From an uncultured Nitrospiraceae bacterium (GTDB taxonomy: Bacteria; Nitrospirota; UBA9217): DNA of 64,000 bases. The DNA lies in the NCBI GenBank assembly GCA_964447405.1, contig CAYUSP010000003.1, forward strand, positions 691,723 through 755,722, given 5' to 3'. Below, one piece after another: positions 1,842-31,141 of the stretch; within the stretch, counting starts at the first letter, position 1; each line of letters begins with the position of its first letter. Under the pieces are notes generated by a model, which saw only the letters and a program-made list of their open reading frames with translations, was not told where the DNA came from and searched no databases. A program made the translations under genes and the position numbers.

Positions 1842-3062
1842 TCATCTCAGCCCCGAGCTCATCTCAAGCATAGGCAGCATGATGGCGATGACAATGAAAC
1901 CGATGATCAGGCCCATCACCAGGATGATCACCGGTTCCAGGAGCGCCAGAAACCCGGTGATGCGCGTCTCCACGGTGCGGTCGAACGAATCCGAGATCTT
2001 GAGTAGCATTTTTTCGAGTTCACCGCTCTTCTCGCCCACGGCAACCATCTGCACGACCACGGGCGGGAACAGGCCGCTCCTGCGCAGCGGGTCCGCGATG
2101 GGCTCGCCTTCACGTACGTTGTCGCGGGCCTTCTGGACCGCATTCGCCAGCACGGTATTCCCCACTACATTTCTGACAATATCAAGGGCAGTCAGCGTAG
2201 GAACTCCGCTCTGGAGCAGCGTGCCCAGTGTCCGCGTGAACCGGGATACCGTGATCATGCGGATAAGCCCGCCGAACACGGGAATACGCAGCAGCCAGGC
2301 GTCAACGGCCTCTCTTCCCGCTTGCGTGCCGATATATCTCCGGAAATAGAATATCCCCAGGCCAAGCGCCAGCAGGATCGCCCACCAGTAAGAGGAGAGC
2401 AGCCGCACGATCCCAAGCAGCATGAGCGTCACGAACGGAAGCTGCTGTTTCGTGTTCTCGAACATGCCCACGACGCGCGGCATTACAAAGCTGAACACGA
2501 AGAACAGCATGCCTGCGCCGATGATCGTCATGAACGCGGGATAGGCAAGGGCCGCTGTGATCCTGCCGCGGAACCGCACCTGCTCGTCCAGAAAATCCGC
2601 CAACCGGTCAAGGGTTATCTCAAGAGTCCCGCTCGCTTCACCAGCCGAGACCATGTTGACATAGAGCGGCGAAAAGACCTGCGGATTATCCTTGAGTGCA
2701 TCCGCAAGCGATGCGCCTTCGCGTACCCTGTCGCGCACCGCGGAGAGCGCGGCCTTCAGGGCCTCGGTCTCCTCCTGGTCCACCAGCACGGTCAGAGCAT
2801 CCATCAGGGGGAGCCCCGATGACAACAGTGTCGCAAGCTGCCGCGTGGAGGTGGCCAGGTCGCCGAGACGCACCTTTCGCCTGAACACGGTGGTTGATGC
2901 CCCCCTGCGGGCAGCCTGGGCAGCGTCCCCTTCGCGGATCTCAAGAACGATGATGCCGTCTTTCTTGAGCTTCGTCCGGACGGTCTTGAGGCTTTCCCCG
3001 TCCTGGGCACCGGATATCTTCTTTCCCTGGCTGGTAACGCCTTTGTATTCGTAGACCGGCAT
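1842..3062 (-). CDS. gspF: Type II secretion inner-membrane platform protein GspF
   Basis: 406 aa with two GspF repeats, multi-pass membrane topology, and the typical ...LGTLLQSGVPLL... motifs. Confidence 0.9.
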   Translation of the reverse strand: MPVYEYKGVTSQGKKISGAQDGESLKTVRTKLKKDGIIVLEIREGDAAQAARRGASTTVFRRKVRLGDLATSTRQLATLLSSGLPLMDALTVLVDQEETEALKAALSAVRDRVREGASLADALKDNPQVFSPLYVNMVSAGEASGTLEITLDRLADFLDEQVRFRGRITAALAYPAFMTIIGAGMLFFVFSFVMPRVVGMFENTKQQLPFVTLMLLGIVRLLSSYWWAILLALGLGIFYFRRYIGTQAGREAVDAWLLRIPVFGGLIRMITVSRFTRTLGTLLQSGVPTLTALDIVRNVVGNTVLANAVQKARDNVREGEPIADPLRRSGLFPPVVVQMVAVGEKSGELEKMLLKISDSFDRTVETRITGFLALLEPVIILVMGLIIGFIVIAIMLPMLEMSSGLR

Positions 3063-3162
3063 GGTTTTAATTCAGTTGGGGGTCGCGAGTTCGTAGTTCG
3101 GAGATAAAGACCGAAACTGCGATTCTCACTTCCATCTCCGAACTCCAAACTCCGAACTTACC

Positions 3163-4848
3163 TCACGTTTCCTTCTGCGTCACCCTCACTACTTCGTCAA
3201 CTGACGTGATGCCGGCGAGGATCTTTTCTGCGCCGTCCTGGCGGAGCGAACGCATGCCTTTTTCCATAGCCAGGGCCTTGATCATGGAAGCATCCGAGTT
3301 CTTCATAATCATCTGGCGCATCTCGTCATCCACCGTCAGGAGCTCATAGATCGCGCTCCTGCCAAAATAGCCGGTGTGGAAGCAGGCTTCGCACCCTTTT
3401 GCCCGATACACGGTGATGCCCGCGGCTCCTGTCCTGATCTCGAGTTCCGCGATCTCGCCGGCGGTCATCTGGTATGGCTCACGGCACTCTTTGCACAGCA
3501 CGCGCACGAGCCTCTGCGCAAGGATCCCCATAACCGACGAGGAAATAAGAAACGGTTCGATCTTCATATCAATCAACCGGGTCACCGCACCGGCGGAATC
3601 ATTCGTATGCAGCGTGGAGAACACCAGGTGTCCGGTGAGCGCGGCCTGGATCGCAATCTCAGCGGTCTCGGAGTCCCGGATCTCGCCCACAAGGATCACG
3701 TCCGGATCCTGACGCAAAACCGAACGGAGCCCCGCGGCAAAGGTGAGATGGATCTTGGCGTTCACCTGGATCTGCCCGATGCCCTTGAGCTGGTACTCGA
3801 CCGGGTCTTCGATGGTGATGATGTTCTTGTCCGGAGAGTTGATCTTCGAGAGCGCCGCGTACAGCGTGGTAGTCTTGCCGCTGCCAGTCGGGCCGGTAAC
3901 GAGAACAATGCCGTGGGGTCGCTCGATCATCGCATTGAACCTGGTAAGGGTATCCCCGGTGAATCCGATCTGATCGAGAGGCAGCAGGGCGCTTTCGCGG
4001 TACAGGAGGCGGAGCACGAGCCGCTCGCCGAACGCGGTGGGAACAATCGAGACACGGATGTCCACATCCTTGCCACCGATCTTGATGCGCATGCCGCCGT
4101 CCTGCGGCAGCCGCCGTTCTGCGATGTTCAGATCGGCCATGATCTTGACGCGCGAAGCGATGCTGGCCTGAAACCGCTTCTGGATCGTGAGAATGTTGTA
4201 CAGGATGCCGTCTATGCGGAACCGCGCGATCATCTCTTTTTCGAAGGGCTCGATGTGAATGTCGCTCGCGCGCTCGCGGATGGCCTGGGACAGGAGCGAA
4301 TTCACCAGCCTGATGATCGGAGCGTCGTCGGTGGCCTCCAGCAGGTCCGCGGGCTCATCGAGCTCCACCGCGAGAAAGGACAGGTCATCCTCCTCCATTT
4401 CCTGGACCGTATCCTCGGCGCGGTTCATGTCCTCGCTGTGAAGGCGGTTGATGGTGTCCAGGATCAGTTCGGACGGGGCAAGCACCAGCGATATATCGGC
4501 GTTGAAAAGGGCCCGGAGATCATCAAGCGTGGCGAGGACAAGCGGTTCGGATGTGGCGGCAACGACCGAGCCGTTCTCCCTGCGGAGCGGGACGGCGATC
4601 GCTTTTTTTGCGTAGGTGATGGGAACCTTGAGGGCCAGCTCGCGGTCGATTTCCCCGAGCTCGCCCTGGAACGGAAGGCGGAGCTGGGCGCCGAGCGCCT
4701 TCAGCACATCGGCCTCCGTCACAAAGTTTAACCGGACCAGCAGCGTACCGATCCGTCCGCCGCGCTTTTTCTGGAGTTCGAGCGCCTTTTTCAGCCGCTC
4801 CGGCGAAAGCCCGGACTCAACAAGTATCTCGCCGAGCAGGCGTCTCAC
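3163..4848 (-). CDS. gspE: Type II secretion ATPase GspE
   Basis: 561 aa with an N-terminal T2SSE_N/MshEN domain, Walker A GPTGSGKTTT, Asp/His boxes, and a tetracysteine CKEC...CEAC zinc motif. Confidence 0.9.
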   Translation of the reverse strand: MRRLLGEILVESGLSPERLKKALELQKKRGGRIGTLLVRLNFVTEADVLKALGAQLRLPFQGELGEIDRELALKVPITYAKKAIAVPLRRENGSVVAATSEPLVLATLDDLRALFNADISLVLAPSELILDTINRLHSEDMNRAEDTVQEMEEDDLSFLAVELDEPADLLEATDDAPIIRLVNSLLSQAIRERASDIHIEPFEKEMIARFRIDGILYNILTIQKRFQASIASRVKIMADLNIAERRLPQDGGMRIKIGGKDVDIRVSIVPTAFGERLVLRLLYRESALLPLDQIGFTGDTLTRFNAMIERPHGIVLVTGPTGSGKTTTLYAALSKINSPDKNIITIEDPVEYQLKGIGQIQVNAKIHLTFAAGLRSVLRQDPDVILVGEIRDSETAEIAIQAALTGHLVFSTLHTNDSAGAVTRLIDMKIEPFLISSSVMGILAQRLVRVLCKECREPYQMTAGEIAELEIRTGAAGITVYRAKGCEACFHTGYFGRSAIYELLTVDDEMRQMIMKNSDASMIKALAMEKGMRSLRQDGAEKILAGITSVDEVVRVTQKET

Positions 4849-6710
4849 CGGGCGCCCTCGGCGGGTCGGCTCGACTCAGGAGTGACCGTCGTCGCGGCGG
4901 GTGCTGACTGCTGTTGGCCAGCAGCCGGCTCCTGCCCAGCCCCTGACTGTTCGCCGGTTGTAGGTTTTTTCTCGTGCGCGCCCGGGAGGCCCCGGTCCTT
5001 TTTGTCAATACGGTATTCCTTGCGGAACTCATCCAGGGATTCGTTCTTGTGCCTCGTAAGTTCGCCGGCCTCGGCGTCTCCCTTGATCACGTAGGGCGTA
5101 ATGAAAATCATGAGGTTCGTCTTCTCGATCTTGGTCGTCTTGTATTTAAAGAACCATCCCAGGATCGGGATATCGCCCAGCAGCGGCACCTTCACGGTTG
5201 ACGCTGTCGCATTGTCCCTGATCAGCCCGCCGATCACCATGGTTTCCTTGTCTTTCACTACGACGGTGGTGCTTGCCGAACGCTTGCTCGTACTCGGGCC
5301 CACCAGGTTCGGATTCAATCCGGCAGTCGCGATCACGTTGGATATCTCAAGGTTCAGCTCGAGCTTGACGTTGTCCTCCGAGGTGATCTGCGGCGTCAGT
5401 TCCATGGTCAGGCCGACGTCCTTTCGATCGATGGCGGTCAGGATGGAGCCGGCCGTTGCCGGAGTCTGGGTTTGACTGCCGATGAACGGCACATTCTCGC
5501 CGACCATGATCTTGGCCTTTTGATTGTCCGTGGTAAGGATGTTCGGCGTGGACAGCACATTCACGTCGCCGTCAGTCTGCACCGCGCGAAGGAGCGCGCC
5601 GATGTTCATGTACTCCACACCTTTAAAAGAGAAGGTACCCTTGACCGCTCCCACGGCCAGGCCATTGAAGCCCGCGAATGCGGCAGGTCCGCTGACCGTC
5701 GCGTTGGCGATGCCGCCGAAGTTCGTCCCGCCCACGGCATTCGTGCTGCTGTCGCTCAGTTGATTGACAGCGCGGAACTCGAATCCGAGTTCCCGCTGCT
5801 TTGCCAGACCCATCTCGATGATCGCTGCTTCGACATAGACCTGGCGGCGGCGAATATCAAGTTTCTGGATCACGTCCTTCATGATCTCGAAATCGCCTGG
5901 CGATGCGACAATAATCAGCGAGTTCGTTGTCTTGTCCGCAGTGATGGTGACCGCGCCTTCGAGGATCGTGGACGGTCCCGCGGGCTGCGCCGCTCCTCCC
6001 GCCGGCGGCACCGGCAGCCTGGAGACAAGCGCCTGCATCAGTTTAGCGATGTCCTCGGCGTTTGCGTTCCTCAAATAGTAGACGTTAATCTTGCCTTTCC
6101 CTTCGGGCGCCGCCACGTCCATGGCATGGATCAGGCTTTCGATCTTCCTGATGTTATGCACGGAGTCGGTAATGATGACGGAGTTCGTGGTGGGATAGGC
6201 GATCAGCGTGCCGTCTTTGGTAACGAGGGGGGAAATCGTTCGCACGATCTCCTGCGGATTGACGAAACTCATGCGGATGAGCTTGGTTACGTACCCCTCC
6301 CCGTTCATGCTGCCATCCTGCATCACCTTGAGCCCGCTCTGCCTGGCCGAGGCCGCGGGAATGATGCGGATCACCGCTCCGTCCTCAATGGCTGTAAACC
6401 CCTTGATTTCGAGCGCCGAAAGGAACACCTGGTATGCCTCGTCGGGTGAGATCTTCGTCGGCGTCATGAGCGTGATCTTGCCCACCACGCGTTCATCCAG
6501 GATGAAGTTCCTGCGCGTAAGCTCGCTCATCACTTTGATGAGGGCGTTGATGTCGATGTTGGTGAAGTTCAGGGTGATGTAATCCTCGCCGGATCTTGCC
6601 TTCTGAAGATCGGCCTGATCGGGCGGGGCAACGGGCTTCTTCTCTTCAGCGTTAGCCGCGGATATGCCCATGAGCCCCATGAGAAGCAGCAGGGCCGCTG
6701 TTCTTTTCAC
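4845..6710 (-). CDS. gspD: Type II secretion secretin GspD
   Basis: 621 aa with a signal peptide, N0-N3 secretin N-domains, and a C-terminal secretin domain (...VPLLGDIPILGWFFK...). There is an ATGA overlap with gspE. Confidence 0.9.
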   Translation of the reverse strand: MKRTAALLLLMGLMGISAANAEEKKPVAPPDQADLQKARSGEDYITLNFTNIDINALIKVMSELTRRNFILDERVVGKITLMTPTKISPDEAYQVFLSALEIKGFTAIEDGAVIRIIPAASARQSGLKVMQDGSMNGEGYVTKLIRMSFVNPQEIVRTISPLVTKDGTLIAYPTTNSVIITDSVHNIRKIESLIHAMDVAAPEGKGKINVYYLRNANAEDIAKLMQALVSRLPVPPAGGAAQPAGPSTILEGAVTITADKTTNSLIIVASPGDFEIMKDVIQKLDIRRRQVYVEAAIIEMGLAKQRELGFEFRAVNQLSDSSTNAVGGTNFGGIANATVSGPAAFAGFNGLAVGAVKGTFSFKGVEYMNIGALLRAVQTDGDVNVLSTPNILTTDNQKAKIMVGENVPFIGSQTQTPATAGSILTAIDRKDVGLTMELTPQITSEDNVKLELNLEISNVIATAGLNPNLVGPSTSKRSASTTVVVKDKETMVIGGLIRDNATASTVKVPLLGDIPILGWFFKYKTTKIEKTNLMIFITPYVIKGDAEAGELTRHKNESLDEFRKEYRIDKKDRGLPGAHEKKPTTGEQSGAGQEPAAGQQQSAPAATTVTPESSRPAEGAR

Positions 6711-6835
6711 TCGTCGCCTCCGTGATTTGAATTGTACAGGAAAATACGAACCGGAGAATCGGGGAATGGGGGCCTCGGAAAGGTTCTCGGGCCAATATTC
6801 CGTAGCTCCCGTTCCCCGGTTCCCCGGTTTATGTG

Positions 6836-7660
6836 TTAGCGTATCTCGTAGTTCAGCGTCTGGCGCTGACCGCCGCGGATGAGGTCAATGGAGATGTACC
6901 GCTCGTTCCTGAGTCCCTGGTAAAGCTGGAAGAACTTGGAGGGATCGTCAACATCCTGCGAATTGACCCGCTGGATCACATCATTGTTCTGGATCCCGAT
7001 CTTCTCATAGATGCTGCCCGGCACGATCTCGCTGATCTTGAACCCCACGGTCTTTCCCTGCTCCATATGGGGCAGCGCACGCGCCTGCGTCAGTATCTGG
7101 CTCATGTTTTCCGTGCTCGCGATCATTTCTTTCTGGTCCACCATCCATTTGCCATCGGAGAGCTTTTTTACACCGTTTACGCCCGGCTTTGGGATGGAGA
7201 CGATCTTGGTGTCGTCGATGATCTGGATGTCGACGGTCCCGCCATCCGCTTTCTGGAGCGTGACCTTGTCGCGGATAACCTTTATGATCTGCGAACCATC
7301 AGGCAGCTTCTGGCGCGTCCGGTAAAAAGCCTGGCCCGTGCTGTCCTCAAGCACTGCGCCGGAAAAATTCGCGCCCTCCACCGTCCCGATGAGCTTGTAG
7401 GTGGTGGCTTCGATTGCTGTCGCTCCCCCGGAAGGCCCTTTTCCATCACCGAAGATCCCGCGTTCAAGGATGGAGGAATAATCGGAGAGCTCGCGCTTCG
7501 GCTCGATCGCTGGCCGTTCACGGTCCAAGGGAGCCGCGTACTTCGGAGCAGCATCAAGGCTCCTGCCGATCATCGCATCCACCGTATCAGCAAGAAAATA
7601 AGCTGAAAACGTGAGAAGAGCAATGAGAACAAGCGTATACAGTGTTTTTTCTTCTTTCAC
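6836..7660 (-). CDS. gspC: Type II secretion protein GspC (PDZ domain)
   Basis: 274 aa with an N-terminal TM anchor, an HR/pilotin-binding-like region, and a C-terminal PDZ domain (...GFKISEIVPGSIYEKIGIQNNDVIQRVNSQDV...). It is the first gene of the operon. Confidence 0.7.
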   Translation of the reverse strand: MKEEKTLYTLVLIALLTFSAYFLADTVDAMIGRSLDAAPKYAAPLDRERPAIEPKRELSDYSSILERGIFGDGKGPSGGATAIEATTYKLIGTVEGANFSGAVLEDSTGQAFYRTRQKLPDGSQIIKVIRDKVTLQKADGGTVDIQIIDDTKIVSIPKPGVNGVKKLSDGKWMVDQKEMIASTENMSQILTQARALPHMEQGKTVGFKISEIVPGSIYEKIGIQNNDVIQRVNSQDVDDPSKFFQLYQGLRNERYISIDLIRGGQRQTLNYEIR

Positions 7661-8710: not shown

Positions 8711-9961
8711 ATGATTATCGAAAAAAGCGCTTACTTTCCTGTTGCTAATCAGCATGAGACTCACTATAATTCGCCCATGCTGGCCGACAAAAACGTTCTC
8801 TCTGGACTGGATCTCATTGACAAACAGTGGCCCCGGGACCTCAAAGGCGCGCGTGTCGGGCTCGTCGTGCATCCCGCTTCCGTGAACCGCAACCTGCAGC
8901 ACGCGGTCACAATATGCATGAGGTCGAAGCGCTTCGAGCTCACTACGCTCTTCGGCCCGCAACACGGGATCCTCGGGCAGACCCAGGACAATATGATCGA
9001 ATGGGAGGGTTTCAAAGACCAGTCCACCGGCCTCCCTGTTTACAGTTTATACGGTAAATTCCGCAAACCTCGCCCTGAGATGTTGGCGAACATTGATGTT
9101 CTGGTGGTCGACCTTCAGGATGTGGGGAGCAAATATTATACGTTCATCTGGACATTGGAACTCTGCATGCAAGCGTGCAGGAGCGCGGGCAAGGCCGTGA
9201 TTGTCCTGGACCGGCCCAATCCGATAAATGGGCAGAGCGTTGAAGGGCCGCTCCTGAATCCCGAATACGCGTCCTTTGTCGGGCTTCGTCCCCTTCCCAT
9301 CCGCCACGGCATGACCATCGGAGAGATCGGATCCTATCTCAGAAACACATTCCATGCCGGGCTGGACTACCGTGTCATCGCCATGCAGGGATGGAAGCGC
9401 GGCATGTGGTTTGAACAGACAAAACTGCCCTGGGTAATGCCCTCACCTAACATGCCGACACCCGATACGGCTCTGGTCTATCCCGGCATGTGCCTGTTCG
9501 AGGCCACGAACATCTCGGAAGGCAGGGGTACCACGCGGCCCTTCGAGATCTTCGGTGCACCGTTCATCATTGCCGAGGCTATTGTGGACGTTCTCAAAGA
9601 ATTCAAGCTGCCTGGCGTGATCTTCCGCCCCCTCTCGTTCCAGCCCACGTTCCAGAAACACGCGAACGCACTCTGCAACGGCGCTCAGATCCATGTAACG
9701 AACCGTGACAGGTTCAAACCATTCAAGACCGGAGTAGCGATCCTGAAAGCCATCCACAATACGTATCCCCGCGACTTCAAGTGGAACCAGCCTCCCTATG
9801 AATATGAAGAAGTGAACCTTCCTATCGACATCCTGGCGGGAAGCGATCGGCTGCGCAAGGACGTCGAATCATGGAAGGACATTGATGATATGGAAGCGTG
9901 GTGGAAGGAAGAAGCGAAGGCGTTTGAAAAAACAAGGAAGCAATTCTTGCTCTATAAATAG
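8711..9961 (+). CDS. DUF1343 family protein (NamZ-like exo-beta-N-acetylmuramidase)
   Basis: 416 aa with conserved DUF1343 blocks (...LFGPQHG..., VVDLQDVG, IVLDRPNP, ...EATNISEGRGTTRPFE...). Alternative start at M23 (8777). Confidence 0.8.
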   Translation: MIIEKSAYFPVANQHETHYNSPMLADKNVLSGLDLIDKQWPRDLKGARVGLVVHPASVNRNLQHAVTICMRSKRFELTTLFGPQHGILGQTQDNMIEWEGFKDQSTGLPVYSLYGKFRKPRPEMLANIDVLVVDLQDVGSKYYTFIWTLELCMQACRSAGKAVIVLDRPNPINGQSVEGPLLNPEYASFVGLRPLPIRHGMTIGEIGSYLRNTFHAGLDYRVIAMQGWKRGMWFEQTKLPWVMPSPNMPTPDTALVYPGMCLFEATNISEGRGTTRPFEIFGAPFIIAEAIVDVLKEFKLPGVIFRPLSFQPTFQKHANALCNGAQIHVTNRDRFKPFKTGVAILKAIHNTYPRDFKWNQPPYEYEEVNLPIDILAGSDRLRKDVESWKDIDDMEAWWKEEAKAFEKTRKQFLLYK

Positions 9962-9970
9962 AACCATTTC

Positions 9971-10103
9971 ACCGCAGAGGACGCAGAGGGGAAGCATGGC
10001 GAGGAAGGCAACGGCGGGCAAGGCATTAAGCTTTGTTTAAAAACCAGAAATAATTTTGAATTAAGATTTCCTTGGAGTTGATTTCCTCTGCTTCCTCTGC
10101 GGT
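9971..10103. repeat. Cargo-less inverted-repeat element: accgcagaggacgcagagg ... cctctgcttcctctgcggt, about 130 bp
   Basis: The left arm at 9971-9989 is identical to the left IR of the GxxExxY element at 12360-12381. The right arm at 10085-10103 is its imperfect reverse complement. The interior is AT-rich. Confidence 0.55.
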
Positions 10104-10114
10104 AACAATTATTT

Positions 10115-12091
10115 ATGCCTGAATTCAATCTCAACATTTTCCTCCCCGCAGCTGGCCTCGGTGAACGGCTCAGACCGATCACGAACCACATTCCCAAACC
10201 GCTCCTTCCGATACTCGGCAAGCCAATCATCGAAGGCATTCTCGATAAACTCACTCTTGTCTGCAACGGCAGCATAGGGATTAACCTCCACTACAAGCCG
10301 GATATGCTACGCGAATGGGCTGTACGATCTACCTGGGCTGACCGCATATCATTCTTTCCCGAGGACCCGATCCTCGGGACCGGCGGCGCGCTTAAGAACG
10401 CGGAGTCATTTCTCTCCAGCAGGAACTTCATCGTCCACAACTCAGACATCCTCCTTGATATCAACTTCACCCGCCTGATCGAAGAGCACCTCTCTTCAGG
10501 TAATATCGCCACACTTGTATGCCACCGTTTGCCGGAGCTTGCCAACGTCGTGATCGATACACACGGCCAGGTCCTGGATGTAGAAAACCCGGGAGCATCA
10601 AAACCGGACGCATCGACCACTGCGGACAAGGTCGCCTATACCGGCGTCGCAATCTACTCACCGGACATATTGCAGTTTCTGCCATCCGGCGTTTCACATG
10701 CCACGGTCGCGTGGATAGCCGCGTCCAAGGCTGGTTTTCGAGTGCGCGCCTGGGATGTCACCGGCTCGTACTGGAACGACGTGGGAAATCCAGTGACCTA
10801 TGCACGAGGTGTACTGGACGCCCTGCGTGAAAACGGGGAAATGGTGCATGTCTCCCCTGCGGCACGATGCGGGAACATCCTGAGCGACGGTTATCTGGTG
10901 CTCGAGTCAAACGGGGAAGTACAGGACAGCTCCCGGCTCAGGAATTGTATTGTGATGCCCGGGGCAAACGTTTCCGGCAGTCATGCGGACTGCATTCTCG
11001 GTCCGGACTACGCGGTCGCACTTACGGAATCCGACATGCAGCCGTCGGTCCATGCGGCGGAAAAGAAACGCGTATTGCTGAACGATCCGCTTTTCTCGTC
11101 GCACTTTGGGATTCACGCCATGAGCAACTGCACAGCTGCAACTCCCAACTCGCCATTCTGGTCCGACGCAATCCTGATAGGACTCGGCGGCTCGGATAGG
11201 CGCTATTTCCGCGTACGGAACAATGGTAAGACCGCGGTCCTCATGGAGTGCCGGCAGGATGATCCGGACTATGATCGCCATTTGATTTACACCAGGTTCT
11301 TTAAAGAACATACCGTGCCCGTGCCTGAGCTCATTGCATCAGACACTGAGGGCAAACGTGCCCTGTTCGAGGACCTCGGAGACACATCGTTGTACTCATA
11401 CCTGAAGCTTCCGCACGCGGCTTATGCAGTCGAGGAAGTCTATCGGAAGGTGCTCGACATCCTGGTGCAGCTCCACACCAGGGTCACGAATCATGTATAC
11501 GGGTGCCCGACACTCAGTGCGCGAGTATTCGACTATGATCATTTACGGTGGGAAACAGGTTATTTTATGGAGCGGCTCGTCACCGGACTGAAAGATATCG
11601 CGGCGTTTGATCGGGCGGCACTGGACAACGAATTCCACCGGCTTGCGGAGCGGACAGCTGCGTTGCCCAAAAGCGTGATCCACCGGGATTTTCAATGCCA
11701 GAATATCATGATCACGGATGGAGACATGCCGCGCGTAATCGATTTCCAGGGCGCACGCATGGCGCCGCCAGGTTATGATGTCGCATCCATGCTGTGGGAC
11801 CCGTACCACCGGCTGGATGAAGGCGTCCGGGAGCGCCTTATTGGTTATTATGTGGCGGAAATGAAGAAATGTTCGGAAAATTTCGATGAGCAGGCTTTTT
11901 TGAACAGCCTGATCCCCTGCCGGCTTCAGAGACATATGCAGGCTTTGGGTGCATTTGGATTTTTGTCTGTGGTCAAGGGGAAAAAATATTTCCGCAAGCA
12001 CATACCCGAGGCAATGCGACTGTTGAAAGAGGAGACTATCCTGGTCAAGGAAGAATTTCCGACGCTGGCATTGCTCGCGTCAACACTCTGA
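10115..12091 (+). CDS. Fusion protein: MurNAc-alpha-1-P uridylyltransferase (MurU-like NTP-transferase) + left-handed beta-helix linker + anomeric MurNAc/GlcNAc kinase (AmgK-like APH-fold kinase)
   Basis: 658 aa. The N-terminus ...LPAAGLGERLRPITNHIPKPLLPI... is a nucleotidyltransferase fold. The middle has hexapeptide-repeat-like stretches. The C-terminus has an APH/choline-kinase catalytic loop HRDFQCQNIMI and IDFQGA. It sits adjacent to the NamZ-like gene. Confidence 0.75.
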   Translation: MPEFNLNIFLPAAGLGERLRPITNHIPKPLLPILGKPIIEGILDKLTLVCNGSIGINLHYKPDMLREWAVRSTWADRISFFPEDPILGTGGALKNAESFLSSRNFIVHNSDILLDINFTRLIEEHLSSGNIATLVCHRLPELANVVIDTHGQVLDVENPGASKPDASTTADKVAYTGVAIYSPDILQFLPSGVSHATVAWIAASKAGFRVRAWDVTGSYWNDVGNPVTYARGVLDALRENGEMVHVSPAARCGNILSDGYLVLESNGEVQDSSRLRNCIVMPGANVSGSHADCILGPDYAVALTESDMQPSVHAAEKKRVLLNDPLFSSHFGIHAMSNCTAATPNSPFWSDAILIGLGGSDRRYFRVRNNGKTAVLMECRQDDPDYDRHLIYTRFFKEHTVPVPELIASDTEGKRALFEDLGDTSLYSYLKLPHAAYAVEEVYRKVLDILVQLHTRVTNHVYGCPTLSARVFDYDHLRWETGYFMERLVTGLKDIAAFDRAALDNEFHRLAERTAALPKSVIHRDFQCQNIMITDGDMPRVIDFQGARMAPPGYDVASMLWDPYHRLDEGVRERLIGYYVAEMKKCSENFDEQAFLNSLIPCRLQRHMQALGAFGFLSVVKGKKYFRKHIPEAMRLLKEETILVKEEFPTLALLASTL

Positions 12092-12334
12092 TACAATCGG
12101 CTGTGCGCCTCTATCCCTCATTGCTTTCTCCACTGCCGTGATTTGCTCGTTAAGCAACTTGCACTCTTCCTCGTATTCCGTGGTCAAATTCTGCGCTTTT
12201 TCGGCGCCGATGTGCACCGAGGTCTTCACGAAGGTGAATGAGTGCATGTCCTGCAGGTCGCACAGGTTATCCTTCAACCGCTTGAGCTCGGCTTTGAGTT
12301 CGTCGAAGGACATATCGTTATAATTCTTTGTCAT
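12080..12334 (-). CDS. Hypothetical small coiled-coil protein, 84 aa
   Basis: MTKNYNDMSFDELKAELKRLKDNLCDLQDMHSFTFVKTSVHIGAEKAQ... with an RBS gagg. It converges on the MurU-AmgK gene with a 12-nt 3' overlap. I recognise no family. Confidence 0.45.
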   Translation of the reverse strand: MTKNYNDMSFDELKAELKRLKDNLCDLQDMHSFTFVKTSVHIGAEKAQNLTTEYEEECKLLNEQITAVEKAMRDRGAQPIVSEC

Positions 12335-12359
12335 AACACAAACCTCAAAACCTTTTTTT

Positions 12360-12847
12360 ACCGCAGAGGACGCAGAGGAAGTCAAACCCGCTGGCCTATA
12401 ATCCGTTGGCGACTCTCTTAATGCCATCTTTCAAATGAACAACATTGAAGTTTATTAATAGCCCAAGCTTTTTATTGCTTAATTTCAGGTATGAAAGAAT
12501 TTGTGCTTCATGAATCGGCAATATTTTCTCAACTGCCTTCAATTCAACGATAACACAATTGTCAAGCATAAGGTCTATTCTATATCCGGCATCGATCTTC
12601 AAGCCATCATACAGGATCGGCAAGGCCATTTGAGAAAGCACGGTTAATCCGAGCTTTCGTAGTTCATGCAGCAAACATGCTTCATACGCGCTTTCCAGCA
12701 AACCAGGACCCAAAGCTGAATGAACTTTCATTGCAGCTTCAATAATCTTACCACTAACCCCATTTATATCCATTTATTCCAGACCTCCTGTCTATCCTGC
12801 CAGTTTTTGACCTCCTCGCCTCTCACCCTCTGCGTCCTCTGCGGTGA
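12360..12847. mobile_element. Inverted-repeat-bounded element carrying a GxxExxY gene
   Basis: The left IR accgcagaggacgcagaggaag (12360-12381) and right IR ccctctgcgtcctctgcggtg (12827-12847) are near-perfect reverse complements. They sit exactly between two housekeeping genes and abut the cca stop. Confidence 0.6.
12396..12773 (-). CDS. GxxExxY family protein (PD-(D/E)xK-like)
   Basis: 125 aa. ...GPGLLESAYEACLLHEL... contains the eponymous G-x-x-E-x-x-Y. The C-terminus ...IDLMLDNCVIVELKA... resembles a PD-(D/E)xK core. Confidence 0.8.
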   Translation of the reverse strand: MDINGVSGKIIEAAMKVHSALGPGLLESAYEACLLHELRKLGLTVLSQMALPILYDGLKIDAGYRIDLMLDNCVIVELKAVEKILPIHEAQILSYLKLSNKKLGLLINFNVVHLKDGIKRVANGL

Positions 12848-12851
12848 AAGA

Positions 12852-14329: not shown

Positions 14330-15025
14330 TCATTCCCCGGTCGTTGCTTCCTGAGGTTCCTCACCCGTGATCTGCCTGATGTCCTTCAGCCGTTTTTTCC
14401 TGTCTTCCCGCACAACATACCAGTCATGAATGAGCGTCTCGATCAGGCCGATCAGGAGCTTTTCCTCGCCGGAGTCGGTGTCCTGAATTGCGGCCCCCTC
14501 ACTCTCCATCCGAGCTCCGATCATGCCGCTCCTGCGCACAGACTCGATGGCCTCCCAGGTGAGCGGGTCCACCGTGCCCTTGACCTGGCGGAATTCGTCA
14601 TTGAGACTGCCGGGTTGGACCTGCCAGAAATCACGAAGCATTGCGGAGAGGCAGCGCCGCGACAGGGCTGCAGCCACTTTGGGGCTGAACTCGGCGGCAA
14701 AACAAGCTTCCTGATAATCTTCGAGAATATTATGCGGAAGGGTTGTAGGAAAAGACCGGGCTCGTGAAGGCGGAATGAGCGGCCAGGTCTTGATGTGCTT
14801 ACCCGTGTAAGACCGGTGGTGGCCCGATGTCTCAAGGGTGTGCAGCGAAGCATTCAGGGAGAACCGGCGGCATTTCGGATTGGGGCAAACCACATACTTC
14901 ACCACCAGGCGGCGCGGTCCGTCTGCGTTTTCCCCGGTGAGATCAGCAAAGCTTACCTGACGGTCCGCATCGGACACGGTCTGGTCCGTGCCACAGAACG
15001 CGCAATTCCAGAAATATTCACCCAT
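14330..15025 (-). CDS. DUF4145 domain protein with an N-terminal zinc ribbon
   Basis: The start is taken at MGEYFWNCAFCG. The N-terminus has CAFCG...CPNPKC. The C-terminus ...LPHNILEDYQEACFAAEFSPKVAAALSRRCLSAMLRD... matches the DUF4145 pattern. It sits between cca and aroB. Confidence 0.55.
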   Translation of the reverse strand: MGEYFWNCAFCGTDQTVSDADRQVSFADLTGENADGPRRLVVKYVVCPNPKCRRFSLNASLHTLETSGHHRSYTGKHIKTWPLIPPSRARSFPTTLPHNILEDYQEACFAAEFSPKVAAALSRRCLSAMLRDFWQVQPGSLNDEFRQVKGTVDPLTWEAIESVRRSGMIGARMESEGAAIQDTDSGEEKLLIGLIETLIHDWYVVREDRKKRLKDIRQITGEEPQEATTGE

Positions 15026-15051
15026 GGCTTCCCTCCCTGATATGCATTCCC

Positions 15052-16134
15052 TTACTCCGCGAGCAGTGCCCGCAGATGCTGTTCCTCCCATTCCCTGGTG
15101 ACTACAACCTCGCCTATCTTAGTCGGCAGAACGAATTTAACTTTTCCCCCTTCTGCCTTTTTGTCGATCTGCATCGTTTCCATGAGTTCCGTCACGGACG
15201 GTTTTCGGCTGAGTGAAGACAGACTGGCCGGCAGTCCAAAGGAGGTGACGAGTTTTTCCACTCGCCCGGGGACCGACGAATCGCAGAAACCCGCTTTATG
15301 AGCAAGCCGCGACGCATAGACCATGCCGATGGCCGCAGCATGGCCATGGCGCATGGTGTAGTTCTCCGCAGTTTCAATCGCATGCCCCACGGTGTGGCCA
15401 AAGTTCAGGACCGCACGAAGCCCGCCCTCGCGCTCATCCCTGCTCACAACGTCTGCTTTGATCTCGCAGGACCGGCTGATGATATGGTTCAGTGCGTCAG
15501 CATCCAGCGAGAGGATCCTGTCGCGGTTTTGTTCGAGATATACGAAGAAGGCGCTGTCCCGGATCACTCCGTACTTGATCACTTCGGCCATTCCCGAGAG
15601 CAGCTCCTCGCGGGGAAGGGTCTTCAGCACTTCGAGGTCCATCAGCACTTTTTGTGGCTGATAAAATGCGCCGATCATGTTCTTGCCCATGCTATGGTTC
15701 ACGCCGGTTTTGCCGCCCACGCTGCTGTCCACCATGGCGAGGAGCGATGTGGGGACCTGAATAAATGGCACGCCGCGCATGAAGGTCGCGGCTGCGAAGC
15801 CGGTGAGATCGCCTATCACTCCGCCGCCCAAAGCTACGAGCGCGGAATTTCTGTCGAAGCTGTTGATCAGGAGCGCAGTGTAGATGGCATTCGCCCAATC
15901 AAGGTTCTTGTACTGCTCCCCGTCCGGCACCTCGATGGACATGACCGTGAATCCCGCGTTTTTAAGGCTGTCCGCGGCGCGTTTGCCGTACAGGCCCTTG
16001 ACCAGGGGATTCGTAACCAGGGCCATCTTTCTGCCGAGGCCCAGACCCTGCAGGCGGGCGCCGATATTGTCCAAGCTTGAACCGATCTCGATGTCATAGC
16101 TCCGGTCGCCGAGGTTGACACTAACAGTATGCAT
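15052..16134 (-). CDS. aroB: 3-dehydroquinate synthase
   Basis: 360 aa with a Gly-rich NAD site LGGGVIGDLTGFAAA and metal ligands ...NFGHTVGHAIE... Confidence 0.9.
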   Translation of the reverse strand: MHTVSVNLGDRSYDIEIGSSLDNIGARLQGLGLGRKMALVTNPLVKGLYGKRAADSLKNAGFTVMSIEVPDGEQYKNLDWANAIYTALLINSFDRNSALVALGGGVIGDLTGFAAATFMRGVPFIQVPTSLLAMVDSSVGGKTGVNHSMGKNMIGAFYQPQKVLMDLEVLKTLPREELLSGMAEVIKYGVIRDSAFFVYLEQNRDRILSLDADALNHIISRSCEIKADVVSRDEREGGLRAVLNFGHTVGHAIETAENYTMRHGHAAAIGMVYASRLAHKAGFCDSSVPGRVEKLVTSFGLPASLSSLSRKPSVTELMETMQIDKKAEGGKVKFVLPTKIGEVVVTREWEEQHLRALLAE

Positions 16135-26653: not shown

Positions 26654-27952
26654 TTAGAACGCCATGGTAAGCACGCCCTGGATGTTGGTTGAAGCATCCT
26701 TGCCCAGACCTGCGCCCGGGATAAGATGGCCGACAACCCAGTTCCAGGTCACGCCATCAGCAAGCTTCCAGTTCGCCTTGAGGTCGATTTCGTTTCCGAG
26801 CTCGGAAGTATCTGCACCACCAACTTCCTTCTTGTTCGCGACCTTTTCCGTGGCCTGCAGAATCCAGATATCGCCGCCAATGCTCAGGTTCTTTGTAGCT
26901 GCGAACATGGCGCCTGCATTAAGCGCTGTGGTACCGCAGAAGCCCTGGTTCTTCGCGCCGCATGCACCAGCGACCAAGAATTCATAGACCAGCGTGTAGT
27001 GAACATCCTTGTCAAGGAAGGTGACCATTTGATTGAAGTCAGGTGAGGTCGAATTGCGCTTGACGCCGGAACCGCGGGCTACGGTAAAGTTCACCGTGAG
27101 AGCATCCATCGGCACTTTGCCTTCGATTACGATCTGGTTGCCCTTGAGTTTTGCCGAGGTGGTAGCACCCTTTGCTGTGCCAGACTGCATGTCAAGTTCA
27201 GCCTTGAGATCGATCGGGCCGACTTTGCCGCCAAAATGCAAGCCGACGTTCGTGGCTTTCGTGTCATAACCGGCTGTATTGAATCCAAAGCCATTTCGAC
27301 GGTCATTCGCCTGTAAGATGTTGATACCGGCTGTGGCATCACCAAACTTGTTGGTGGCAACGAGCACATAGGCATCAATGTCATCGCTGGCATTGATCGC
27401 TCCCTCGGAGATCTTCACATCCACTACGCCAAGATGGAGTCCGCCGAAATCAGCATAGGCTACTAAGGCATCGGAACCATACTTGTTGGAACGAATGAAC
27501 CAAGCATTGCTGAGCTGAAGGAACATATGACCAGCCTTGAAAAAGACTGGCGTTCCCGGGATCGGGGTCAGGAGCCATGCTTCGCGAAGCTTGATGCGGC
27601 TTGCGGGACCAGTGGTGGCAACGTAATTGCCAGCTGTATTCGTGCCACCGGTCACTACCGTCGTGGTTCCCTGCTCTGCTTCATATCTGCCGAATGTGTC
27701 CCAGTCGTTCTCGATCGTCACTTTAGCCTTGGCATCGCCTGCCTTGGCATTAATGTCAATGCGAACTCTCTCCTGCGTGCTAACGTCTCTTGTGGCGCTC
27801 GTGTCAGCTGTTGCATCACTAAAATCCAGGTTGTTGAAATTCTTGCTTCTCAAAAATACCTGCCCGCCTATGGTAACATCCGCGGCCAGGGCCACCGTAC
27901 TGATCATAACCATCGCCAGTGCCAACAGTACTACGAAATACTTCTTCATCAT
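26654..27952 (-). CDS. Outer-membrane beta-barrel protein (porin-like)
   Basis: 432 aa with signal peptide MMKKYFVVLLALAMVMISTVALA. The body is Gly/Thr/Asn-rich with alternating strands and a C-terminal ...LTMAF ending in Phe. The upstream leader is long and AT-rich. Confidence 0.7.
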   Translation of the reverse strand: MMKKYFVVLLALAMVMISTVALAADVTIGGQVFLRSKNFNNLDFSDATADTSATRDVSTQERVRIDINAKAGDAKAKVTIENDWDTFGRYEAEQGTTTVVTGGTNTAGNYVATTGPASRIKLREAWLLTPIPGTPVFFKAGHMFLQLSNAWFIRSNKYGSDALVAYADFGGLHLGVVDVKISEGAINASDDIDAYVLVATNKFGDATAGINILQANDRRNGFGFNTAGYDTKATNVGLHFGGKVGPIDLKAELDMQSGTAKGATTSAKLKGNQIVIEGKVPMDALTVNFTVARGSGVKRNSTSPDFNQMVTFLDKDVHYTLVYEFLVAGACGAKNQGFCGTTALNAGAMFAATKNLSIGGDIWILQATEKVANKKEVGGADTSELGNEIDLKANWKLADGVTWNWVVGHLIPGAGLGKDASTNIQGVLTMAF

Positions 27953-28665
27953 TCATCCTCCCTTAACATTGATTTTGCCCCGAATTGCTCCGGAACACAA
28001 GGTAACCTCTTTTTTATCTACAACTCAAAATGATGCCGATGCATTATTGCGGTTTATTGGGACAGCACCCCCCCTTTCATCTTTGTATCAAAATTTTGAA
28101 CAAACGAAGGATAGAGACTCAAGTCCACATAGTGAGCTGATGTGCATTTCAAATTTTACTGCATTTCTTGTATTTTTTTTGCGGAATCCCTTGCTGCTGC
28201 TTTTGGGACAACTGATGTATTGCTCAACGCGAACACGTTGGCAATGGTGATATGTAGGTCTGTCAGTGGTTATCATTGATTGATAATTTCATACGAATCT
28301 GCCACTAGCACAAACAACTACAAACAACGAAATGTGAAAACCGGGGAAGACAAAACACGTGATGCAAGCATTCAATGAGCATTTGGAAGCAATTGAAGTA
28401 GGGCAAATATAACAAAGTCGCATAGTCAAGTCAAGACTTTTCTACCTCATTGAAATGGGAATAAAACATGATCAGTTGCAGATTACCGAAACTATAAACT
28501 CGCTGACTTGCTGACGTAGAAAAGATTGCCCGCGCATATAACACCATTCATTCATGAAACAGGTCCCAAAAAGTCTGACGTACCTCAGCTGCGATTTGAT
28601 CAATCAGTCGGACCTGTGGCTAACCAGTCGCCGCCAATTCCCGGGATCATCATTTCAGTTTCCCC

Positions 28666-29313
28666 TTGCCATCACAAATAACTCATGCTATAACGCTCGT
28701 CATGTCAACCTCTCCCTCCTTAGAAGAACAGATAACGATGGCGGGCCTCACATACGGACGCCGCCACGACATCGCATACCGCTCCGGCATGGTGCTCCAG
28801 GTATGCGGTGCTGCCTTGCTCGCTGTGCTGTATCCGCTCGACAGCCCGTTCTATACCATAGGCATCATGCTGTTCGAAGCCGGCGTACTGCTTTCTGCAA
28901 TCTATCTTCTCGTTTGGATGCGCCCGGTCAAGAAGATAATAGTCGGGTCGGTGATCGCAGGGCTCGTTCTTCAAGTAGTCGGTGCCTTCGCGGCCCCGGA
29001 ACAATATGCGGGTCTGGTTCTGCTCTCAGGAATCGGGCTCGTCTGCGCTGGAGCGGCTGGGATGGTCGGCAATGAGGCGTTTTGCTTTGGATACCGTGAA
29101 GGCTGGGTGCTTATGCTGGCTGGATTTCCCGTGATGGTCCTGGCAAATCTGCTGCTCAGAGAGAACCGCATTTTCAATTCGCTGGGTTTCTCCGTTATTT
29201 TTTTACTGCTGCTTTCACTTACAGGCAAGAAGCTAAGGCAGAAATTGCTTTCTTTACCCTCTACAAGCGTTTGCGGGGTGTCGGAGAGGACAGAAGTAAG
29301 AAGTAAGAAGTAA
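28666..29313 (+). CDS. Hypothetical polytopic membrane protein
   Basis: 4-5 predicted TM helices. The start is uncertain (alternatives 28702 or 28738). No family is confidently recognised. Confidence 0.45.
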   Translation: MPSQITHAITLVMSTSPSLEEQITMAGLTYGRRHDIAYRSGMVLQVCGAALLAVLYPLDSPFYTIGIMLFEAGVLLSAIYLLVWMRPVKKIIVGSVIAGLVLQVVGAFAAPEQYAGLVLLSGIGLVCAGAAGMVGNEAFCFGYREGWVLMLAGFPVMVLANLLLRENRIFNSLGFSVIFLLLLSLTGKKLRQKLLSLPSTSVCGVSERTEVRSKK

Positions 29314-29736
29314 GAGAACTACCAAATATAATTCGTCCAACATGAAAAAACATAACTTCAGAAATCTAAAAATCTACCAACGAGCCATAGCATTCGCTGT
29401 GGATATTTACCAGATCAGCAGGAGTTTTCCGCAGGATGAAATTTATGGGCTGACAAGTCAGATACGACGGGCCGCAACTTCAATCCCCCTTAATATTGCC
29501 GAAGGCAGTGGCAGCACATCAGGAAAAGAGTTTAGGCGATTTCTTGAAATTGCTTTACGTTCTGATTATGAGGTATTGGCCTGTCTGGAAATATCATTAC
29601 GATTGAATTACTGCAATCATGCGGTTTTTGAAAAACTGACTCAGGAAGCAAACGAAATAGCATCCATGATAGCTGGATTCTCAAAAAGCCTATAATCTTA
29701 CTTCTTACGTCTTATCTCCTTTTTCTTTCTTCTGTC
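29286..29736. mobile_element. Inverted-repeat-bounded element carrying a four-helix-bundle gene
   Basis: The left arm is gaggacagaagtaagaagtaagaagtaagag (29286-29316). The right arm is cttacttcttacgtcttatctcctttttctttcttctgtc (29697-29736), which ends at the stop codon of the sigma54 response-regulator gene. gtaagaagtaag/cttacttcttac is an exact reverse complement. Confidence 0.6.
29342..29695 (+). CDS. Four-helix-bundle protein (the so-called 23S rRNA intervening-sequence protein family)
   Basis: 117 aa. MKKHNFRNLKIYQRAIAFAVDIYQISRSFPQDEIYGLTSQIRRAATSIPLNIAEGSG... is the hallmark of this family. Confidence 0.85.
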   Translation: MKKHNFRNLKIYQRAIAFAVDIYQISRSFPQDEIYGLTSQIRRAATSIPLNIAEGSGSTSGKEFRRFLEIALRSDYEVLACLEISLRLNYCNHAVFEKLTQEANEIASMIAGFSKSL

Positions 29737-31141
29737 ACTTAAAATCTTCCTTTTTCAAACCATACCGCGCCATCTTTTCATGGAAGTTCTTGATATTGAT
29801 CCCCGCATGACCAGCCGCTTTGGTCATGTTTCCGGCATACATTTTGAGAAGCTGGGTAAAATATTCTGTTTCAAACTGCGCAACGACCTCAGTTTTGATC
29901 ATCCGAAAAGGCGGGATATCGCCTCCTCCGGGGAATGACGCGGTGAACTTTCCTGTTCCTCCCGGACGTTTCAAGTCAAGACGGCTGAGGGTGTCGCCCT
30001 TTTCCATGATCACTGCGCGTTCGATAAGATTCTCCAGTTCGCGCACGTTTCCGGGATAGGAATACCGCAGCAACGCAGTGAGCGCATCCGGTGATATAGA
30101 AGTAATCGTTTTCTGGTTTTTTTCGCAATATTTCCTGAGAAAAAATGAGGCTAAAAGCGGGACATCGTCCATCCGGTCCCGCAATGCGGGCAATTTGATC
30201 GGAACAACATTCAGCCGGTAAAAAAGGTCCTCGCGAAACAACCGTTCACCCATAGCGCGATGAAGATCCTTGTGCGTGGCGGCAATGACCCGTACATCGA
30301 CTTTTACGGGATGATTACCTCCCACGCGTTCGAACTCACGCTCCTGCAGTACGCGCAGGAGCTTCATCTGGACCGGCATGGACATTTCCCCGATCTCGTC
30401 GAGGAACAGCGTACCACCATCCGCCATCTCGAATCTACCGATGCGCTGCCGGATCGCACCGGTAAACGATCCCTTCTCGTGTCCAAACAGTTCACTTTCC
30501 AGGAGGGTCTCGGGAAGGGCTGAACAGCTCACAACGACGAATGGGCGGTCCTTTCTTCTGCTGTTATAGTGGATCGACCGGGCTATGAGCTCTTTGCCTG
30601 TGCCGCTCTCTCCGTGGATCAGCACAGTTGCATCGGTCTCGGCCACTGTACGGATGAGCTGAAATATCCCCTGCATGTGCGGATTTCTTCCCAAAAGATT
30701 GCCAAACTGATAACGCTCCTCCACCTCATGCCTGAGATTTTCCACCTCCCGGAAAAGCCTCCTGCGTTCAACAGCATTTTTTACCTGTTGGCTCAGATCC
30801 TCATATTGTATCGGTTTGGTTAAAAAGCTGTAGGCGCCCTCCTTCATTGCCTTGACAGCCATCTCTATCGTCCCGTAAGCGGTCACGACGATCACCGGAA
30901 TGTCAGTCCTGCCCGGCCCCGGGAAGGCTCCCTTGCGAAGCTTCTCGAGCAGGTCCATACCCGTGATCATCGGCATCTGCTGGTCCACGATAATGACATC
31001 GAAATCGCGGCTCTCAAGGCATCTCAATGCCGAAACGCCGTCTTCCGCCGTCTCTACTTCATAGCCTTCCCTTCTGAGGTTGGCAGACATGACCAGAAGG
31101 ATGTCGGGCTCATCGTCGACTATTAAGAGGGAGCCTTTCAT
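29735..31141 (-). CDS. Sigma54-dependent response regulator (REC + AAA+ sigma54-activator + Fis HTH)
   Basis: 468 aa with a phospho-acceptor Asp in ...DFDVIIVDQQMP..., a GAFTGA-like ...GSFTGA..., an ESELFGHEKG Walker B region, and a C-terminal HTH. Confidence 0.9.
   Translation of the reverse strand: MKGSLLIVDDEPDILLVMSANLRREGYEVETAEDGVSALRCLESRDFDVIIVDQQMPMITGMDLLEKLRKGAFPGPGRTDIPVIVVTAYGTIEMAVKAMKEGAYSFLTKPIQYEDLSQQVKNAVERRRLFREVENLRHEVEERYQFGNLLGRNPHMQGIFQLIRTVAETDATVLIHGESGTGKELIARSIHYNSRRKDRPFVVVSCSALPETLLESELFGHEKGSFTGAIRQRIGRFEMADGGTLFLDEIGEMSMPVQMKLLRVLQEREFERVGGNHPVKVDVRVIAATHKDLHRAMGERLFREDLFYRLNVVPIKLPALRDRMDDVPLLASFFLRKYCEKNQKTITSISPDALTALLRYSYPGNVRELENLIERAVIMEKGDTLSRLDLKRPGGTGKFTASFPGGGDIPPFRMIKTEVVAQFETEYFTQLLKMYAGNMTKAAGHAGINIKNFHEKMARYGLKKEDFK

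Follow-up and report, generated by a model that had tools for sequence, protein, structure and literature searches.

A widespread two-gene module of a NamZ-like protein and a MurU/AmgK-like fusion protein, a candidate for cytoplasmic amino-sugar salvage in Nitrospirota and other phyla

Introduction

In this study, we analyzed a two-gene module of an uncultured Nitrospiraceae bacterium (contig CAYUSP010000003.1), which lies in a DNA stretch of 64 kb that was analyzed as a whole and is called the window in the following. The two open reading frames (ORFs) are located on the plus strand at 8711-9961 (416 aa) and 10115-12091 (658 aa). The first encodes a NamZ-like protein of family GH171 (DUF1343) and the second a fusion of a sugar-1-phosphate nucleotidyltransferase and a kinase. 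NamZ-like and fusion genes are functionally coupled in both directions and across phyla, and the two-gene module is real, ancient and widespread. Supported by the data is a skeleton of a glycosidase-family protein, an anomeric sugar kinase and a sugar-1-phosphate nucleotidyltransferase, i.e. a salvage line ending in a nucleoside diphosphate (NDP) sugar. We assign a probability of roughly 0.55 to the reading that this is a cytoplasmic amino-sugar salvage module, most likely leading from N-acetylmuramic acid (MurNAc) via MurNAc-1-P to UDP-MurNAc, with every substrate inferred.

The enzymes AmgK and MurU reportedly form the 'MurU shunt' of Pseudomonas putida, Pseudomonas aeruginosa and Caulobacter, the description of which is attributed to Gisin et al. 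2013. As in the shunt, an APH-fold anomeric kinase and a small sugar-1-phosphate nucleotidyltransferase act in sequence in the proposed module, and no curated families score better for the two halves of the fusion than AmgK and MurU. The module differs from the shunt in having one polypeptide with the transferase at the N-terminus and a putative degenerate left-handed beta-helix (LbH) plus a linker between the domains, and in having a cytoplasmic NamZ as partner instead of AnmK and MupP. For the scale of divergence within these families, the proven Caulobacter AmgK/MurU orthologues share no more than 30-37% identity with those of Pseudomonas. No description of an AmgK-MurU-type fusion or of its pairing with NamZ was found in the literature.

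Results

Distribution of the fusion and its linkage to NamZ

As originally predicted, one 658-aa polypeptide carries both a sugar-1-phosphate nucleotidyltransferase and an APH-fold kinase. Pfam placed NTP_transferase (1.8e-17) at aa 12-231 and APH (2.3e-26) at aa 354-581, and homologues matched over the full length. More than 1,413 proteins shared words with the fusion, and the top 120 homologues all had 650-690 aa, 66-73% identity and full coverage. These many full-length homologues exclude a frameshift or an assembly artefact as the origin of the fusion. In a 50%-identity library, 669 fusion representatives were found under 1e-30, most of them 540-720 aa long and matching both halves, with Lentisphaerae and Victivallales among the distant ones. 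Data with one genome per species contained at least 597 fusion loci, distributed over Nitrospirota (Nitrospiria, Thermodesulfovibrionia), Methylomirabilota, Binatia, Hydrogenedentota and Caldimicrobium, and the closest match of the window fusion among the species genomes was from a Nitrospiria metagenome-assembled genome (72% identity). Two size classes could be distinguished, one of about 550-590 aa without LbH and one of about 620-670 aa with LbH. The homologues bear only generic names ('phosphotransferase', 'sugar phosphate nucleotidyltransferase'). A split version with NamZ, transferase and kinase as separate genes was also seen. The fused architecture, put forward in the original prediction as a notable trait, is common in public data and not peculiar to this genome.

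For the analysis of linkage, 71 species-genome loci with enough upstream sequence were evaluated. In 52 of them, NamZ immediately preceded the fusion on the same strand, with a gap of at most 20 nt in 29 of these 52, usually as an overlap of 4-14 nt; in six further genomes it was found 0.5-4 kb upstream. In the reverse direction, the fusion followed directly downstream of 50 out of 66 metagenome NamZ homologues and within 2.3 kb of five more. The pairing also extends to fusions of other lineages that are only 40%, 30% and 30% identical, and in a Lentisphaerae locus a NamZ without signal peptide overlaps the fusion by 4 nt. Apart from NamZ, no conserved neighbour was present across 80 genome loci. 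A NamZ fused to kinase or transferase (Rosetta-stone evidence) was not found, and a 901-aa relative had no recognisable extra domain.

Two further loci are worth recording. At one (L089), Peptidase_Mx and D-Ala-D-Ala-ligase (Ddl)-like ATP-grasp genes come after the NamZ-fusion pair, and at the other (L090) a distant relative (P0184) is a transferase-kinase-acetyltransferase triple fusion with the GNAT domain at the C-terminus. Together, the GNAT triple fusion and the Ddl-like/peptidase locus point to amino-sugar or peptidoglycan metabolism.

The kinase half

The C-terminal part of the fusion (aa 346-658; 11150-12091, plus strand) is an AmgK-like APH-fold kinase domain, and among the curated kinase families AmgK is its nearest. 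In NCBIfam, it scored 90.3 bits with the AmgK model NF045759 and 56.4 bits with the second AmgK model NF045698 (cut-off 500), compared with 23 bits for APH(3'), the kinase family that came next outside AmgK. All 63 diverse family members (25-51% identity to the window protein), which were also used for the conservation alignment, matched the AmgK model. The nearest solved structure was 3csv (5e-18; Foldseek TM 0.75). This protein itself belongs to the AmgK family, its 278-aa fragment reaching 239 bits on the AmgK model, and it has the motifs SxRRYxR, HRDFQxQN and IDFQxA in common with the fusion kinase. The HxDxxxxN catalytic loop and the metal-binding Asp are intact, with H523, R524, D525, N530 and D543 being invariant in the alignment.

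The transferase half

The N-terminal part (aa 1-240; 10115-10834, plus strand) is a MurU-like sugar-1-phosphate nucleotidyltransferase domain. Its best NCBIfam match was the MurU model NF045761 with 83.6 bits, and the second MurU model NF045697 gave 64.2 bits (cut-off 370). Across the 63 relatives, the best E-value obtained with MurU was 4.7e-39, which was still under the cut-off. One of the NCBIfam MurU models is typed 'equivalog_domain', so that curators perhaps already know MurU inside larger proteins and the fusion as such may have precedent.

The catalytic signature of these transferases (GxGxR, the Lys of PKP and two Mg-binding Asp) is present, and G14, G16, R18, K28, D111 and D222 are invariant or, as D222, nearly so. 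Asn57 of the fusion aligns with Asn52 of PpMurU (4y7t; 'VVINHAW' vs 'IGINLHY'), and at least 90% of the members of the wide family retain it. In PpMurU, Asn52 is described as the residue holding UTP, and this position is occupied by Ser in HddC and reportedly by Val in most nucleotidyltransferases (PMC6981941). The 'GER' and 'TxHxPKPL' (His25) motifs of the fusion also agree with PpMurU and PaMurU, unlike HddC or GMPP. The single-domain architecture of MurU, which has no C-terminal extension, is not shared by the fusion, in which the LbH-like segment, the linker and the kinase come after the transferase. GMPP/ManC and HddC resemble the transferase half in sequence and fold to a degree comparable to MurU, and GMPP is the model for the putative LbH tail; they differ from the fusion in lacking a kinase domain, and HddC has Ser where the fusion and MurU have Asn.

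The segment between the two domains

Domain calls and a structure prediction of the fusion, which had been proposed along with the original prediction, confirmed the two halves and left the region between them poorly defined. The AlphaFold model (28 homologues) had high confidence at aa 1-240 (transferase) and aa 348-658 (kinase) and was poor at aa 240-345 with a pLDDT (predicted local distance difference test) of 28-54, and in this region it showed strands of 2-4 residues about every six residues. The claim that a hexapeptide-repeat segment joins the halves holds only in part. A partial six-residue aliphatic periodicity is visible at about aa 244-303, and LbH models matched some others among the 63 family members (LbH_EIF2B 11, Hexapep_GlmU 5 and Hexapep 4 matches, possibly overlapping); the relative P0181 had a weak GMPPB_C match. 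The window fusion itself, however, gave no Pfam LbH or Hexapep match, even with the isolated segment at E<=10. ManC/GMPP alignments extended to aa 266-289 of the fusion, and Foldseek alignments to GMPP comprised 346-369 columns. We interpret aa 241-303 (10835-11023, plus strand) as the degenerate remnant of an LbH with about three turns, an element also present in GMPP and FKP, and by analogy to these proteins the short segment is probably an oligomerisation or scaffold element. It is followed by a low-confidence linker (aa 304-345; 11024-11149, plus strand) with one short strand and one helix, which is poorly conserved across the family.

The domain order resembles that of FKP, the L-fucokinase/GDP-fucose pyrophosphorylase of Bacteroides fragilis, which consists of pyrophosphorylase, three-turn LbH, linker and kinase (PMC11982464). 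FKP differs in its GHMP-fold kinase, its length of 949 aa and its specificity for GTP and fucose, whereas the window kinase has the APH fold, and no sequence relationship between FKP and the fusion was detectable in the searches run.

The NamZ partner

The presence of an adjacent DUF1343/NamZ-type gene, as originally predicted, was borne out by Pfam and by the conserved adjacency, but the protein is atypical. The ORF matched NamZ_N with 1.4e-82 (276.5 bits; gathering threshold 26.9) and NamZ_C with 1.2e-57 (195.4 bits; gathering threshold 25) as well as PDB 4k05 with 6.6e-73, and it is 35% identical to BF0371 over the full length. The longest ORF starts at 8711, while 120 close homologues are only 393-395 aa long; their N-termini are hydrophilic, and the conserved domain begins within about 10 residues. 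Because of these homologue lengths, the true start is probably Met23 (ATG at nt 8777, 22 codons further downstream), giving a gene at 8777-9961 (plus strand) for a protein of 394 aa. Starting there, and with its hydrophilic N-terminus, the protein would have no room for a signal peptide, and this NamZ subfamily would be cytoplasmic. The characterised NamZ proteins (B. subtilis; T. forsythia NamZ1-3) are all secreted or periplasmic, and the Sec signal peptide found in all of them is missing from the window NamZ, as judged by homologue lengths and N-termini.

The second deviation concerns the active site. The proposed catalytic Glu92 of NamZ is located at the end of strand 2, its role coming from a homology model only (PMC8054146), and from the description in that paper it would be the Glu of the PEHG motif. 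BF0371, BF0379 and the Lentisphaerae homologue carry this Glu, whereas the window protein has PQHG with Gln84 (ORF numbering; nt 8960-8962). Among the operon-linked homologues, 56 of 58 carry Gln at this position, as do 119 of 120 close homologues from the database and 78 of 80 from metagenomes; a profile search intended to sample Glu-type NamZ proteins returned close Gln-type relatives only. The equivalent of NamZ Arg279, the arginine pointing into the active-site cleft, is retained as Arg272 (GRGTT), which is kept in 59 of 60 sequences. In the motif SEGRGTTRPF, which is fixed in the Gln-type subfamily, Glu270 and Arg276 (nt 9518-9538) replace Ile/Leu of two solved Bacteroides homologues, and this gain may reflect a relocated catalytic residue or a changed mechanism. 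Compared with the known GH171 proteins (B. subtilis YbbC; T. forsythia NamZ1/2; B. fragilis BF0371/BF0379), the window protein thus agrees in both Pfam domains and the Arg279 equivalent, and differs in the lack of a signal peptide, the Gln at Glu92, the new Glu270 and Arg276, and the operon with a kinase/transferase fusion.

Palindromic element and genomic surroundings

In the window, the spacer between the two genes is filled by a palindrome of 137 nt (9967-10103, without strand assignment) with terminal inverted repeats of 19-24 nt (ACCGCAGAGGACGCAGAGG); in many relatives, the NamZ and fusion genes overlap instead. The terminal inverted repeats also flank a 494-nt unit at 12356-12849 that holds a minus-strand PDDEXK_3 (GxxExxY-type) gene, and an 18-mer of the spacer element occurs in 4 copies vs 0.02 expected. 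The short copy at 9967-10103 looks like a derivative of the type of miniature inverted-repeat transposable elements (MITEs). In the presumed operon transcript, the RNA of this copy would fold into a hairpin (-56.8 kcal/mol; z -5.6). An Rfam scan of 8.4-12.9 kb assigned no family to the palindrome, the sole match being a chance miRNA model on it, and a promoter/terminator scan found no terminator between the NamZ and fusion genes, with counts at background level. In one relative (L004), a single arm of the palindrome is present at the same intergenic site.

Upstream of the pair, a GATase gene and a type II secretion cluster are located on the opposite strand, and downstream, also on the opposite strand, a small ORF, the PDDEXK_3 gene and the gene of the CCA-adding enzyme. 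Because it is flanked by divergent and convergent neighbours, the pair of NamZ and fusion genes is a self-contained unit. The divergent type II secretion/pilus-type cluster (1842-7660, minus strand) comprises a GspF-like protein, the GspE ATPase, the GspD secretin and a PDZ-containing protein. The small ORF (12080-12334, minus strand) is convergent with the fusion gene, the final 12 nt of which it overlaps; it encodes 84 aa that look like a coiled coil and have no match in Pfam, and it is also called as a gene in a Logan contig (L001). Further ORFs without Pfam match are one of 253 aa with a Cys-rich N-terminus (14330-15091, minus strand), located between the gene of the CCA-adding enzyme and aroB, aroK and aroC of the shikimate pathway, and one of 432 aa (26654-27952, minus strand). 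The latter adjoins the region of 28000-30000, which has the lowest GC content of the window (0.457 vs about 0.55 elsewhere).

Discussion

Proposed function

In the proposed pathway, the GH171 enzyme without signal peptide would cleave MurNAc from the non-reducing end of imported peptide-free fragments such as MurNAc-GlcNAc (GlcNAc, N-acetylglucosamine) or MurNAc-GlcNAc-anhMurNAc. MurNAc is the exact product of the characterised NamZ enzymes, and MurNAc-GlcNAc is a natural substrate (PMC8054146). The AmgK-like C-terminal domain of the fusion would then use ATP to phosphorylate the anomeric hydroxyl group, yielding MurNAc-alpha-1-P, and might act on GlcNAc too; the MurU-like N-terminal domain would join MurNAc-alpha-1-P with UTP to UDP-MurNAc. 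Both activities are suggested by the respective families. UDP-MurNAc would enter peptidoglycan synthesis past the MurA/MurB steps, and since free MurNAc is made directly, the module would not need the reactions of AnmK and MupP that are part of the Pseudomonas route. A functional analogue of the first step is MupG, the cytoplasmic 6-phospho-N-acetylmuramidase of S. aureus, which likewise cleaves MurNAc(6P) from the non-reducing end of an imported disaccharide. MupG belongs to an unrelated family, however, needs a 6-phosphate derived from the phosphotransferase system (PTS) and feeds MurQ catabolism instead of UDP-MurNAc. We consider MurNAc the most economical choice of substrate, because all known substrates of GH171 are glycans with a terminal MurNAc, no kinase family is nearer than AmgK and the transferase has MurU-type signatures.

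Several observations weigh against this assignment. Although AmgK and MurU are the best curated matches, so that this part of the original identification stood, both halves remain far under the equivalog cut-offs (90.3 bits vs 550 for AmgK NF045759; 84 bits vs 250 for MurU), and the fusion does not belong to either of the two curated equivalogs. For the N-terminal half, ManC (73.7 bits), archaeal GlmU and HddC closely trail MurU in NCBIfam, and among the 63 members the best ManC E-value (1.5e-46) even outdoes the best MurU E-value (4.7e-39). Altogether, sequence and fold searches leave MurU, ManC, HddC and GMPP about equally close to the transferase half. Its LGTGGA motif is of the HddC/GMPP type, and the fusion has a putative GMPP-like LbH tail, whereas the 'minimal' MurU is without one. 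With the proposed catalytic Glu exchanged for Gln84, the window NamZ is no more than a putative hydrolase. Regarding gene content, 13 of the 71 genomes, mostly Methylomirabilota, Binatia, Hydrogenedentota and Caldimicrobium, have no NamZ adjacent to the fusion, and neither the module nor the 64 kb window contains a transporter gene. The search for mupP that had been proposed along with the original prediction found none in the window, and anmK, ampG, nagZ, ampD and murQ are absent from it as well (Pfam on the ORFs of at least 180 aa considered genuine genes, excluding long ORFs antisense to or inside these). Finally, NamZ is mostly missing where the anabolic AmgK/MurU route is present (PMC8054146); that survey was queried with AmgK and MurU of P. 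putida, so that divergent fusions would not have been picked up.

A more specific form of the MurNAc proposal, which we put forward tentatively and would not expect to hold in all its parts, is a third MurNAc recycling route in Nitrospirota, Lentisphaerota and other little-studied phyla. Here, a cytoplasmic GH171 protein with rearranged active site (Glu to Gln, with a new Glu/Arg pair), either a hydrolase with relocated acid or a phosphorylase, would cooperate with a bifunctional enzyme to form UDP-MurNAc independently of AnmK, MupP and MurQ.

Alternative explanations

The same logic of glycosidase, kinase and pyrophosphorylase may serve another sugar and/or another nucleotide, e.g. GlcNAc, N-acetylgalactosamine (GalNAc), another hexosamine or a GDP-activated sugar, with the product going to lipopolysaccharide (LPS), exopolysaccharide (EPS) or other glycans. 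We regard this main rival as rather unlikely, but it is consistent with the sub-threshold scores of both halves for AmgK and MurU, the equal nearness of the transferase to ManC, HddC and GMPP together with a putative LbH tail typical of GMPP, the occurrence of the fusion without NamZ in several phyla, and the divergence of the NamZ subfamily at its proposed active site. In addition, Glu83 in the ExxP(I)LGTGGA motif of the fusion is, by alignment, the equivalent of HddC Glu80, which binds guanine (PMC6981941). An equivalent of this Glu is, however, also present in PpMurU, where it is not used for UTP binding (PMC6981941), and the MurU-type Asn57, GER and His25 are all retained. It further argues for MurNAc that AmgK is much the closest kinase family and that the sole characterised activity of GH171/NamZ is on MurNAc-terminated glycans.

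A speculative and improbable alternative is that the Gln-type NamZ is a glycoside phosphorylase providing MurNAc-alpha-1-P directly to the transferase, with the kinase handling released GlcNAc or free MurNAc, or that it is a non-catalytic binding subunit. In its favour, the exchange of Glu for Gln is fixed in the subfamily (119 of 120), and Glu270 and Arg276 in SEGRGTTRPF stand in place of the Ile/Leu of the two solved Bacteroides homologues; loss of a carboxylate and gain of basic residues is a known pattern in transitions from hydrolases to phosphorylases. This is opposed by the origin of the Glu92 assignment from a homology model, by the Lentisphaerae NamZ, which has the canonical PEHG and also such a fusion as its partner, and by the kinase catalytic residues, which are still invariant.

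A role like that of LicCA, in which a kinase and a cytidylyltransferase would activate choline, ethanolamine or some other small alcohol without any relation to the NamZ neighbour, is very improbable and was rejected on the basis of domain scores and NamZ linkage: although spirochaete LicC-LicA fusions have the same fold pair in the same order, 15 of the 63 family members gave weak Choline_kinase matches (best 9.5e-5) and the LicC structure 1jyk was matched at 9e-4, the window protein has no Choline_kinase (PF01633) match at E<=0.01, AmgK and APH score far higher, and the linkage to NamZ is tight, two-way and cross-phylum, with overlapping stop and start codons.

Implications

What makes the finding valuable is less the fusion itself than the cross-phylum coupling to NamZ and the unusual GH171 subfamily, which is cytoplasmic and of the Gln type. 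The relevance to fosfomycin tolerance that had been predicted originally is plausible and, like MurNAc and UTP as substrates, purely inferential. A single-chain enzyme converting MurNAc to UDP-MurNAc could serve metabolic cell-wall labelling, which is now done by co-expression of AmgK and MurU. If the preferred reading as a MurNAc salvage module is true, the NamZ partners would be the first cytoplasmic GH171 enzymes and would provide a natural Glu-to-Gln variant bearing on the unsolved GH171 mechanism. The published mutual exclusivity of NamZ and the anabolic AmgK/MurU route would then need qualifying; current pathway surveys miss the module because both proteins are under the AmgK/MurU homology thresholds. 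Several environmentally important phyla, including the nitrite-oxidising Nitrospira, would in that case recycle their peptidoglycan sugars via a compact two-gene shunt.

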